Of a stretch of 64,000 nt of DNA, positions 57,001-64,000 are shown piece by piece. Within the stretch, counting starts at the first letter, position 1. Each line of letters opens with the position of its first letter. Made by a program: the position numbers. The stretch is from positions 3,851 through 67,850 of the IMG/VR virus record IMGVR_UViG_2925908680_000007, one strand, 5' to 3'. This DNA is from a virus. Lineage: Duplodnaviria > Heunggongvirae > Uroviricota > Caudoviricetes.

Positions 57001-60000
57001 GGACTATTCTCAACGGGATCATCCTCAGAGGAACTATCATCAAAGTCATCATCCATAAATAAAATATCATCGAATGGTGCCACGCCCGTGATGAGTTTTA
57101 TTTTATTATTACGATCAGTCAAGACTCCACTTAAACCGTTTTCGCTCACAGGTTTTAATGATTTTTCATTACTCTTGTTGTAAGCAGGCGCATTAAAAAT
57201 ACACGGAGTATCAAGATCAAACAATGACGTTCCCCAGTTCACATATTGAATATCATAGTTACTGAAGTTCTGTCCAGAAAAGAAGCATCCCTTAAAATCC
57301 AATCCACCTAAATTATATAAACCATCCTCTTCTTTTTGGAGAGTAATGTTAATTTTGGCTATCTCCCGGACATCATCGCCATTTTTATATTTGAATACCG
57401 TTTCAAGATTTTCCCCACACAGTTTGACTTCTGGAAATAATTTGAAATCAAAGCCTATATTATTATGTATCAACGTAGATGAACAAAAGATGGAGAAAGC
57501 TTGCAGTGCTGAATTATAGCTTTCGATTTTATCCTGAGGCTGCGCTCTTGGTAAAAACTCATAGCAACATTCATAAAAATTAAGTAGAAACTCTGAAGAC
57601 CTTCCATTTTTATCAAATAATATCCCCTTGAACTCATTCACAAACGCATCTTTTTTTTCTTGAATATCTATGGGGTGTTCCTTTGACTCTGACAAAGATG
57701 AAATCTCATCTATTTTGTTTTCATATGAATTACGTGATTCCATACAGACATTTGGCGGCGTTTCTAAAATAACACTACGCGTACTACTTGGCTTAAGTAA
57801 ACCAACATGAAAATCACTTTTTCTTATATTATCGAAAAGGTTCTGTTCATTTCTTTTAGCGCATTCAAAAAACTGATCGGCATTATTTTTATTCGATAAT
57901 TTTTTAGTTTCAGAAAACACATTTTCATTGTTTTCCAGCTTTAGTTTAATGAGAAGATTTTCCCAGACCTGCTTGCTTAAACATATTACGTCAGGCTCAC
58001 CAGAACTAACTAACTCGTGATTATTATTAAAGTGTACGTTGAATACCTTTAAGTTATTTTCACCAACTTCATATTTAATACGTTTTAATTGTTCTCCAGC
58101 TCCCATAATGACAAAGGCGTTGCCTTCTTGATATATACATTCAGACATCATTTTTTGTAAAGTTTCAAGAGCACCGCGATACGTCTCTGATGCAGCTTCC
58201 TTACAAATTAATTTTAAAATACTATGAGCTAGTAGCTCCATGTGTTTAGAAGATTTATTTTCATTATAACTTCCACTACCCAAAACTGCGCTAGCGTTAA
58301 ATCCGTTGCTTTTACTAACTAACATTGTCTATTCCTCAATTAATGTCTACATGGCTATTTTTAATTTTATTATTGTTTGTCACTATAAAAAATCGCTCAT
58401 TTGAGACAATTGCTGGCATTAACAGCTTCATATGCTATACATGGTACTTTTAATTAAATTAGCACAAGAATGTTAAATTTAATAAACAAAAAGTTATTTC
58501 GCTGTATGATAAAAACCACCCGTTATAATTTATTAGTGAAATTCGTTTTTCGAGTGTTAGAAATTTATATCTCAATAGCGTTGGTTAATGAGCATAGCCA
58601 CGCTCCTGTAACGCTCACAAAACTCATCTGCCTGCGGCGGGTGTTCTGGTCAGTAGTAGATGTTTAAGGCGTGGCAGAGACATTTCATCCTTACTCTACG
58701 GCATTGTTCTACATACATTGGTTGTGGTACTCACTCATCATCAGTGAGCGAACAGAGAATAGTTCAGTGATTTGAGTAATTAACCTGATTAAATTAAGGG
58801 GTATAATAAATGATAATACTCTGGCTTTATCGTTAATTACTTAATTCCACATGTAAGCAATTTGCCCGCTTGGCATAGCGGGCATTTTTTCCAGGTACTT
58901 TTGAATGAGTACTGATGGATAAATACATTGCAGTGGCGTGCCACGTACCAAAACACCAGCCCTCATTCGAAACAACCCACCGCACTTCTTCCTTGAAATG
59001 GCGTTAGTCATGAAATATAGACCGCCATCGAGTACCCCTTGTACCCTTAACTCTTCCTGATACGTAAATAATGATTTGGTGGCCCTTGCTGGACTTGAAC
59101 CAGCGACCAAGCGATTATGAGTCATGAGGCAAGTCCATTCTATATTGTTTTGGTTTGTTCGTAATTGTTTTATTAATTGTTTATAATCAAGTAATTATGT
59201 AATTGCTTCTGTTTCCGCTTGGTTCCGTTTTTTCTCCATTGTACGATCGTTACCTGACCCATTACCTGACCCAAATTTACGAGTTATTTTGATTGTTACT
59301 GGTTTAGAAAAGAGGTTCTATGGCCGTCAATCTAACTGAAACAGCTATCCGAGCATTGAAAGCAAAAAAGACATCGTTCTATGTCTGGAGCAACAGTTCT
59401 CAACGTGGCACTGGACGACTTGGCATCAAAGTTCAGTCTTCTGGCAGCAAAATTTTCTATTTCCGCTATTACGTGGAAAAAGGGAAAAAAGAAAGATTCA
59501 TTCAATTGGGTATATGGCCTGAGATGAAACTGGCTACAGCGAATGAACTGGCAAAAAAGTATGGTGCCTGGCTCATTGAAGGAAAGGATCCCCAGACAGA
59601 ACTGGAGCGACAACAGCTTGCAGAACAGCAGCGGATACAACTCCATCAATCACAGGGCTCATTTGAAGCATTGATTCATGGTTATGTTAACAAAATGAAA
59701 ATTGATAATAAGAGAACATGGCAGGATGTTCTGAAACGCCTTGAAAATGAATGCTATACAGTGATCCCCCGTGAGACTAAAGCTAAAGATGTGACTTCCG
59801 GACAGATTAAACATATCCTGGCCGGGATCATTCAGCGCGGTGCAGTGGTTCACTCTAACCGGATCCGTTCTTACCTGATGGCTGCATTTAACTATGGTCT
59901 GAAAGCTGATAACGATCCGATGAACACAAGTGTAGGGATTACTTTTGGGCTGGAGGCCAATCCGGTATCAGTGATACCGAAACAGTCATCTGCTGAAAAA

Positions 60001-63000: not shown

Positions 63001-64000
63001 GCCTCGTATATGCCAGGGAATGGATGGGATTCGCCAGATAAAACACGATCATACTTTTGTTGCATTGTCCGAGTTACCATGATGTCAGAAGTTTTCTGCT
63101 TGCCACATATTGGCCCACTGTCAGACAGAATCGATGTCGTCCACTGAAATGAAACGTTAATCCTGAGCCAGCCGCAGATTACGTGGATAGCTTGTGTACA
63201 TTTGTTTATATCCTGAGATTTTATACATTATTTACGATCATTTTCTCCTGATTGTGATTGTCTCCGTCAGTTACCCCTGCGTCTTCTGTATAAGCGTATT
63301 TGCTTCATTTTCCGATCATTCGTAGCCTGCTTCTGTCTGTTCAGCAACAGATTGTCTTTTCCTCCGCTTGTTGTAGCTTATTTTTGTGATGATTATCACA
63401 AATTAGATGGAAATATTTCACCTTCCTGCGACTCCTCCATGCCTTGTTTGAATTTTACATGGATTTATTTATATATCCCAACCTGATTTTAGTCAATAAA
63501 AATCGTCATAATGGATTTTTAATATTAATCTTTTGTTTTTATTTGTCGTAGTTTATTTTTATTTGGCTCTATATGTCTTTATTTTTTCTATTAAAAGCCA
63601 TTTTAACATTGTAATTCAGTATTTTGACCTATAAAAATCATAGTATTACATTTTATTTGCAAGGTGTTGGCTGGATGAATGACAGTGACTTTCACTCATT
63701 GTTTATCCGGGAAACTTAGTCATTTCATGCTCATGCCGGAAATAAAAAGTATTGATATATCAGGAGGGTAGTATGTGGCTTCCATTAACAGATGAACAGC
63801 GTCTGGTCATTTTGAAAGCTTATGGGATTGAATGCGACAGACTGGTACGTGAAAAGGAACGATATGAGATCACGTCAGTTTCTCGTACGCAAGCGTGGAA
63901 ACTTGAACGGGAGGGAAAATTTCCACCACGTAAATCTATCGGAAAGAAATCTTGCGGATGGTTGTTAAGTGACCTTCTCTGCTGGATACAGACCAGATGA

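Follow-up and report, generated by a model that had tools for sequence, protein, structure and literature searches.

What is carried between the integrase gene and the alpA gene of a tRNA-linked island, and what might it do? The question is raised by a stretch of DNA of 64,000 nucleotides (nt), hereafter the window, from virus record IMGVR_UViG_2925908680_000007. Near its right-hand end a P4-type integrase gene stands beside a fragment of a tRNA-Ile gene and is followed by two open reading frames (ORFs), ORF199 and ORF543, and by an alpA-family gene. The host sequence is that of Escherichia coli, and positions 58800-64000 (5.2 kb) are 100% identical to strain cq9 (NZ_CP031546.1). An initial annotation of the window had seen here an integrase island with AT-rich cargo of no recognisable family, perhaps for defence or virulence. 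The answer favoured in this work, which as a whole we judge evenly balanced between right and wrong, is that this is the end of an island in the tRNA gene ileY, with an accessory slot in which ORF199 encodes a protective acyltransferase and ORF543 a phage-conflict protein.

The end of an integrative island in ileY

Positions 59077-64000 are the integrase-proximal end of a 72-kb integrative island of the CP4-57 type, inserted in the segment of ileY that runs from the anticodon loop to the 3′ end. The insertion is marked by 47 nt on the minus strand (59077-59123; GACTCATAATCGC...GGCCACCA), which read as the part of a CAU-anticodon tRNA-Ile2 gene, of the ileX/ileY type, from the anticodon loop to CCA, 196 bp upstream of the integrase gene. 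ARAGORN makes no call on this fragment because the 5′ half of the tRNA is missing. In cq9 the element extends for 72.4 kb, up to an intact tRNA-Ile gene (ileY) on the minus strand, and the last 47 nt of this far-end gene match the integrase-side fragment at 42 positions. The five mismatches are compensatory in the T-arm or, in the acceptor stem, form a G-U pair. The AAGGGCC of the fragment pairs perfectly with the 5′ acceptor strand of the intact gene (GGCCCTT), and therefore the fragment beside the integrase is the displaced native 3′ half, and the diverged replacement was supplied by the island. Direct repeats of the tRNA gene's 3′ part flank the element, and ileY is restored by the element-borne copy; a displaced half together with a diverged, island-borne replacement is the signature of site-specific integration. 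The five changes in ileY preserve pairing (31592-31667 of locus record L015 compared with 59077-59123 of the window), which indicates that the att (attachment site) copy of the island evolved as a working part of a tRNA, perhaps in another host.

The tyrosine integrase (438 amino acids (aa); 59320-60636, plus strand) has an arm-type DNA-binding domain at its N-terminus and the recombinase catalytic domain at its C-terminus; it matches the Pfam domains Arm-DNA-bind_3 (E 1.4e-14) and Phage_integrase (E 1.4e-10), as well as the integrase family phrog_1 (E 5e-46). It falls below the curated NCBIfam cutoff for PRK09692 (79.8 bits compared with 434), and is related to that family without being an equivalog. 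The same integrase gene is found at a nucleotide identity of at least 95% in 435 complete E. coli genomes. Between it and the att repeat lies an AT-rich spacer (59124-59319; 33% GC) that presumably holds the integrase promoter and the arm-site region. At the other end of the slot, the alpA-family regulator or excisionase gene (75 aa; 63773-64000, plus strand; so annotated in RefSeq) has a 3′ end that coincides exactly with the edge of the window. Its product matches the Pfam helix-turn-helix family Phage_AlpA at 49.1 bits, compared with a threshold of 21 (E 5e-13), and phrog_2790 (E 4e-23). AlpA of CP4-57 activates the expression of the integrase or excision of the element. By analogy with these families, the integrase and AlpA of the island would perform integration and AlpA-activated excision. 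Thus the P4-type integrase at a 3′ fragment of tRNA-Ile, the 199-aa ORF, the 543-aa minus-strand ORF and the AlpA-like regulator of the initial annotation are all in place, and the far att site and remaining cargo that it expected beyond the window are found in cq9.

The module order is shared with the left end of CP4-57 (ssrA-intA-yfjH-alpA-yfjI-yfjJ). Common to the two elements are a tRNA-type att site, a P4-type integrase, an orphan cargo gene on the minus strand and alpA, then a YfjI/DUF3987 protein and a YfjJ/inovirus-Gp2-type protein; their far ends are also alike, with antirestriction and RadC genes and a CbtA/CbeA toxin-antitoxin pair. The target differs, being ileY or ileX for the island and ssrA for CP4-57, as does the size (72 kb compared with 22 kb). 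Unlike in CP4-57, the att repeat of the island is inverted relative to the integrase gene, so that this gene and the functional tRNA gene stand at opposite ends.

Beyond alpA, the cq9 island continues with a DUF3987 fragment, YfjI, IS66, an inovirus-Gp2-type protein and group II introns, then operons for the utilisation of galactan, raffinose and sucrose, then Hhe, two DUF262 proteins and a type I restriction-modification system. Next come Ag43, antirestriction, RadC and CbtA/CbeA genes, followed by the intact tRNA-Ile gene. A sister island carries a primase of the TOTE system. These named conflict genes are located at 11831-13614 of locus record L017 (TOTE primase) and, in the distal part of the present island, within 974-10382 of L015 (Hhe and the two DUF262 proteins). 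There is nothing unusual about the island itself, which belongs to a family that carries defence cargo generally.

Two convergent genes in a variable slot

The contents of the slot between the integrase gene and alpA differ between related islands: it holds yfjH in CP4-57 of K-12, and ORF199 and ORF543 here. Strain MG1655 has neither of the two ORFs. ORF199 (60736-61362, plus strand) encodes 198 aa from the ATG at 60766, the RefSeq start. A start at the GTG at 60736 would give 208 aa, and the additional N-terminal peptide ‘PVLLKGDS’ given by the GTG start is kept in homologs. ORF543 (61449-63080, minus strand) is convergent with it across a spacer of 86 bp (52% GC), in which pattern matching finds a hairpin with a perfect 10-bp stem (61416-61441), a candidate bidirectional terminator between the two genes. 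On its other side, ORF543 is divergent from alpA across 692 bp of non-coding, AT-rich DNA (63081-63772; 34.7% GC), the sequence of which varies between allele groups.

The initial annotation had described both ORFs as AT-rich cargo and had flanked ORF543 with long AT-rich DNA. This picture holds for the alpA side of ORF543 and for ORF543 itself (39.6% GC); it does not hold for the short spacer on the other side, nor for ORF199, at 46.6% GC close to the mean of the window (48.1%). ORF199 behaves as conserved island backbone rather than as AT-rich cargo. The long spacer was also considered as the site of a hidden partner gene or RNA, and this was rejected: no small ORF is kept across the allele groups, there is no match in Rfam, and tblastn finds no match there to the small partner proteins that accompany ORF543 in other genera. 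Upstream regions compared across genera align poorly and share only AT-rich motifs resembling ATCAA/TTGAT.

An orphan protein family

The product of ORF543 belongs to a family that is both rare and restricted. It amounts to 26 clusters among 5.8 billion proteins; a profile search among 1.84 billion representative proteins returned 42 matches, ∼15 of them full-length, and the gene is present in six of 185,579 species representatives. All members are from Enterobacterales, apart from one assembly labelled Vibrio. No match was found in Pfam, NCBIfam, PHROGs or the sequences and structures of the PDB, nor at E≤0.1 among the 5,027 models of PADLOC-DB v2.0.0, and a tblastn search of 50,697 phage records, P2 included, found no similarity to any gene. 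Scans of 25 homologs taken member by member gave scattered chance matches only, the most frequent being Arg_decarb_HB (9 of 25, best E 0.005). A literature search by RefSeq protein accessions and by pmgF, a P1 gene related to part of ORF199, retrieved no functional study and no paper naming either ORF. The initial annotation had found no family recognisable by eye, and neither ORF is assigned to a housekeeping family by these searches; for ORF199 they give only a remote, putative GNAT fold and a phage family, phrog_7522.

The protein is predicted to be soluble and almost entirely alpha-helical, with no signal peptide, no transmembrane segment and no fold neighbour for the predicted model. The family keeps its length while diverging to 18% identity, and 18 columns of the alignment are invariant with members at that distance included; among them are E30, Q31, R40, D113, R174, Y177, H179, W316, D455, S490, R496, P534 and W536. 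The element R174-x-G-Y-x-H179, invariant in 19 members (to 18% identity), fits the R-x(4-6)-H pattern of HEPN proteins. A HEPN ribonuclease was therefore considered; no HEPN fold or profile match accompanies the motif, which is at most a lead. Homology to YfjH of K-12 was rejected (hhalign probability 0.1), as was homology to tin, old or fun of P2, for which tblastn gave no match in the phage collection. Truly an orphan, ORF543 has both the genomic setting and the mode of evolution that mark an immune gene.

Locations of ORF543 relatives

Homologs of ORF543 are known in Klebsiella, Citrobacter, Raoultella, Serratia, Siccibacter and Atlantibacter, and they recur in variable slots of unrelated elements, which places the gene operationally in the class of mobile-element accessory or hotspot cargo. 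In a P2-like prophage of Klebsiella the homolog is inserted on the opposite strand, between tail genes S (gpS) and V (gpV). Accessory and defence hotspots have been recorded inside P2's tail genes (PMC13586616), and the classic P2 hotspot of Rousset et al. 2022 is between gpA and gpQ (PMC9122126). The place occupied in Klebsiella is of a similar kind to that of the lysogenic-conversion genes of P2 (old, tin, Z/fun and orf30), a location typical of phage-exclusion genes in P2, and ORF543 shares with those genes an AT-rich, strain-variable character; it has no sequence similarity to them.

Other homologs are on plasmids of Citrobacter and Raoultella, and on an IncFII conjugative plasmid of Klebsiella, where the gene lies between insertion sequence (IS) elements near genes for a cytosine methyltransferase and a DUF4145 protein. 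In one assembly the homolog is located between a different integrase gene (399 aa) and alpA, downstream of guaA. In Serratia it is beside IS110, or in an island with a gene for an FRG-domain protein. The homologs of Atlantibacter (downstream of mnmE) and Serratia fonticola stand among ordinary metabolic genes.

Small partner genes outside E. coli

At every ORF543 locus outside E. coli for which the flank was read, a small divergent gene is present ∼340 bp upstream (a remnant beside IS110 in the case of Serratia proteamaculans). Two types were found. The first encodes a strongly acidic protein of 137-149 aa (isoelectric point ∼4) and accompanies the homologs of the Klebsiella prophage and plasmid, Serratia marcescens, Siccibacter and the island labelled Vibrio (locus records L004, 7225-7662; L014, 7245-7658; L019, 6205-6651; L033, ∼5161-5610; L039, 5173-5622). 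In these five unrelated contexts its gene is always divergent; the protein has 46 Asp or Glu among 145 residues and a tail of the form DDDYDF...DDEEYD. It has no match in Pfam, PADLOC or the phage database, and could be a DNA mimic or a neutraliser. The second type encodes a Gly/Ala-rich protein of 107 aa with a hydrophobic segment, and is found in S. fonticola, Citrobacter murliniae and two Atlantibacter genomes, as well as in the S. proteamaculans remnant (locus records L021, 6330-6653; L023, 6344-6667; L034, ∼5317-5631; L035; L037). A weak PADLOC match to the candidate PDC-M09A (E 1e-6) may be compositional.

The type of partner tracks the ORF543 tree. Where adjacent ORF543 homologs share 42% identity, their Gly-rich partners still share 78%, which indicates a long-standing functional linkage. 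The clade of E. coli and Escherichia albertii has neither partner, and its constant neighbour is ORF199. We tentatively raise the possibility, itself the less probable outcome, that Enterobacterales alone have a modular phage-conflict system, so far undescribed, with the ORF543 family as its conserved core and an exchangeable partner. Such a system would consist of an all-alpha core of ∼540 aa with a new fold and the invariant E-Q...R...D...RxGYxH cluster, joined by the 107-aa Gly/Ala-rich putative membrane protein in the deepest clade and by the acidic protein of ∼145 aa in the second clade. The E. coli clade would lack the small partner and have the GNAT-like ORF199 as its constant neighbour.

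A divergent GNAT-like protein

ORF199 matches phrog_7522 (E 1e-129), a phage family whose annotated function is unknown. Its residues R99-D-V-G102-L-A104, at a predicted beta4-alpha3 junction, agree with motif A of the GNAT superfamily (Q/R-x-x-G-x-G/A), the loop that binds the pyrophosphate of coenzyme A. In 18 homologs (down to 65% identity) R99, D100, G102, L103 and A104 are invariant, and position 101 is V or I. The Pfam family Acetyltransf_1 is matched below threshold (14.3 bits compared with 20.7; E 0.05), a sequence profile search of the PDB retrieved no solved GNAT, and neither PADLOC-DB v2.0.0 (same models and limit as above) nor NCBIfam gave a match; a third homolog search returned mainly the same close relatives. 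Together these observations give moderate support to ORF199 being a divergent GNAT-fold protein. It has the R-x-x-G-x-A motif in common with the GNAT superfamily, which includes immunity enzymes of the MccE type, the toxins AtaT and TacT, and Mom of phage Mu. It differs from these in remaining below the Pfam threshold, in matching no solved GNAT by sequence, and in having an additional beta-rich, PmgF-like N-terminus and no adjacent antitoxin or immunity context.

Across residues 5-67 ORF199 shares 45% identity with PmgF of P1, a protein of 98 aa that has no counterpart of the putative GNAT core. Over its full length ORF199 is 87% identical to the product of a gene in the P1-like phage-plasmids SJ46 and RCS47, which is at the position of pmgF after bplB. 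P1 does not require pmgF (PMC10695390), and P1-like phage-plasmids have eight highly variable regions, of which rlfA-rlfB-pmgF (region 5) is one (PMC9603915; PMC6906374). Further homologs are in the leading region of an F-like plasmid, next to an antirestriction gene, and on a chromosome beside a bacteriocin-type cluster of C39-peptidase ABC exporter and glycosyltransferase genes. Like ORF543, ORF199 is by these locations accessory cargo of mobile elements. Within E. coli the gene is under purifying selection, with a ratio of nonsynonymous to synonymous divergence (dN/dS) of 0.03-0.2.

Old alleles beside conserved flanks

Among 5,426 complete E. coli genomes, 690 carry genes similar to ORF543, which occupy 718 chromosomal places. 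A block of ORF199-ORF543-alpA-yfjI is found at ileY, at ileX, after thrW, and beside another island, next to an annotated tRNA-Ser gene (strain A23); ORF199 and ORF543 are also found together in E. albertii. In E. coli PE15 and EC1515 (locus records L028 and L029) the block is ∼310 bp after the tRNA-Thr gene (thrW) with no integrase gene between; either, therefore, recombination has brought it into islands with other att sites, or its integrase gene was lost. A Salmonella ‘plasmid’, pIndS102_4 (CP101363.1; locus record L038), was considered as an excised form of the element and rejected: it is a linear contig of 11.7 kb with a chromosomal context of the ileX type. Its gene order is aer-nfeR-nfeF followed by int-ORF199-ORF543-alpA, and it is probably a misassigned chromosomal contig.

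Gene-by-gene divergence was measured between the window and strain SFE8. The integrase is 98.6% identical in amino acid sequence (synonymous divergence (dS) 0.12; dN/dS 0.05) and ORF199 98.5% (dS 0.05; dN/dS 0.13), compared with 58.8% for ORF543 (dS 1.17; dN/dS 0.26) and 78.7% for AlpA (dS 1.7; dN/dS 0.11). In protein sequence, ORF543 alleles are up to 41% divergent, beside integrase and ORF199 sequences with 98-99% identity; a sliding comparison places a sharp breakpoint at the 3′ end of ORF199. Within the gene the alleles are mosaic, with two hypervariable stretches at about residues 227-313 and 390-440. The dN/dS of ORF543 is 0.22-0.51 overall and 0.33-0.51 between closer alleles. The locus shuffles old, divergent alleles by recombination beside conserved flanks, as is seen in specificity and immunity genes.

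These data bear directly on the main rival to our reading, which takes ORF199 and ORF543 as one two-gene system, for example a GNAT growth-arrest effector similar to AtaT or TacT, with ORF543 as its sensor, regulator or neutraliser. The two genes have near-equal chromosomal numbers in E. coli (732 places for ORF199), they travel together at the four sites above and in E. albertii, and the small partner linked to ORF543 in other genera suggests that this family works with a second protein. Several properties of the locus make such a system unlikely. The genes are convergent with a hairpin between them, so that there is no operon, the recombination boundary falls between them, and their divergence is discordant, at dS values of 0.05 and 1.17. 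Each gene is also found without the other: ORF199 is alone at ∼129 places on P1-like plasmids, on the F-like plasmid and in the chromosomal bacteriocin cluster, and ORF543 homologs are without ORF199 in Klebsiella, Serratia, Citrobacter and others. It is firmly established that the two genes of the slot are intact, under selection and each mobile independently.

Possible roles of ORF199 and ORF543

In the favoured reading, of separate roles for a protective acyltransferase and a phage-conflict protein, ORF199 would acylate a small molecule or a protein and so protect the element or its host, a role of the immunity or anti-defence type. No small antitoxin gene of the ribbon-helix-helix type is co-transcribed beside it, its neighbours being the integrase gene and the convergent ORF543. 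As a soluble all-alpha protein, ORF543 would act in conflict between mobile elements and phages, most probably, judging from its sequence and context, in phage exclusion or abortive infection. Its N-terminal ∼225 residues, with the polar cluster of E30, Q31, R40, D113 and R174-x-G-Y177-x-H179, form a putative effector or catalytic site, and at the hypervariable helical segments of ∼227-313 and ∼390-440 diversifying selection would act on surfaces used for recognition. The gene would be transcribed from the long AT-rich region, which is probably silenced by H-NS. Counting in support of this role are the rarity of the gene, its presence in accessory slots, its fast diversification relative to its neighbours, and the conflict genes elsewhere in the island family. 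The part of the initial annotation that suggested defence cargo finds circumstantial support in the accessory slots and hypervariability, and in the Hhe, type I restriction-modification and DUF262 genes; its alternative of virulence does not.

A number of points weigh against a role in phage conflict. The high dS means that much of the divergence of ORF543 is due to old, recombined alleles, for which ongoing positive selection is not required; dN/dS stays below 1, and positive selection is not demonstrated. Neither ORF199 nor ORF543 matches any PADLOC model, and ORF543 has no detectable enzymatic or nucleic-acid-binding domain. Some homologs, those of Atlantibacter and S. fonticola for example, have no mobile-element marker within 7 kb.

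ORF543 could instead serve the mobile element, whether by countering defences, by sensing or exploiting a helper phage, or by controlling induction of the island. In E. coli it always adjoins the regulatory region of alpA, its relatives are carried by elements that face host defences (conjugative plasmids and prophages), and counter-defence genes typically diversify fast too. We find this explanation doubtful, a little more so than the two-gene system, on three grounds: chromosomal sites without recognisable mobile-element machinery also occur, a protein of 540 aa is large compared with known anti-defence proteins, and an opposite-strand insert in the tail operon of a P2-like prophage is typical of lysogenic-conversion genes.

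Virulence or host-interaction cargo, such as secreted effectors, might be suspected from the AT-rich composition and from a pathogen-associated genome with a Shiga toxin (Stx) 2e prophage in the window and an AT-rich ypjCB as well. It is made very improbable by the lack of a signal peptide or transmembrane segment, by homologs on prophages and plasmids and across six genera from Klebsiella to Atlantibacter, and by the presence of the gene in commensal and environmental E. coli. That the ORFs are decaying remnants, as a mosaic island with many IS elements, group II introns and pseudogenes, and with a DUF3987 fragment right after alpA, might suggest, is scarcely credible when both are intact in hundreds of genomes with the dN/dS values given above, and when ORF543 keeps its length and 18 invariant columns to 18% identity.

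Neighbouring elements in the window

To the left of the island are a ypjA pseudogene, a pinH remnant and ypjCB (NCBIfam YpjCB, 942 bits), genes that in K-12 are located just before ileY. In the window they occupy 53139-58325, as a truncated ypjA autotransporter gene, a pinH-like recombinase remnant and an AT-rich ypjCB (34% GC; DUF5507 and DUF5508). These are leftovers of the right end of the K-12 CP4-57, and therefore the interval from ssrA to ileY hosts three successive mobile elements.

Positions 1-40600 of the window hold a complete-looking Stx2e-converting prophage, with stx2e at 22898-24133. The genes stxA2e and stxB2e are just downstream of a phage-borne tRNA cluster (24224-24477), in which ARAGORN calls Arg(tct) and Met(cat), and RefSeq lists tRNA-Arg, tRNA-OTHER and tRNA-Ile. 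From the RefSeq name, the ‘Met(cat)’ gene is therefore a lysidine-type tRNA-Ile2, of the same type as the target of the island. Next to the integrase gene of this prophage is a P4-like satellite (40937-∼52400) with integrase, psu, ogr/delta-like, icd-like and primase-helicase genes; its hotspot holds an ABC-three-component system with a DUF2326 protein (42137-44852).

Significance of the locus

The pair of ORF199 and ORF543 is carried at tRNA-linked islands by ∼13% of complete E. coli genomes, Stx-producing strains included. ORF543 has the features that are used to nominate immune genes: it is AT-rich, sits in accessory slots with diverse alleles beside conserved flanks, and has no known fold or domain. 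Such candidates are common, and ORF543 is unusual among them in being so devoid of recognisable domains. If it has no part in phage conflict, what remains is a CP4-57-type island with an ordinary slot for cargo. If it does act in phage exclusion, it would represent a structurally new single-gene or two-gene system, and would explain part of the variation in phage sensitivity from strain to strain, with a bearing on phage therapy and on the spread of Stx phages.

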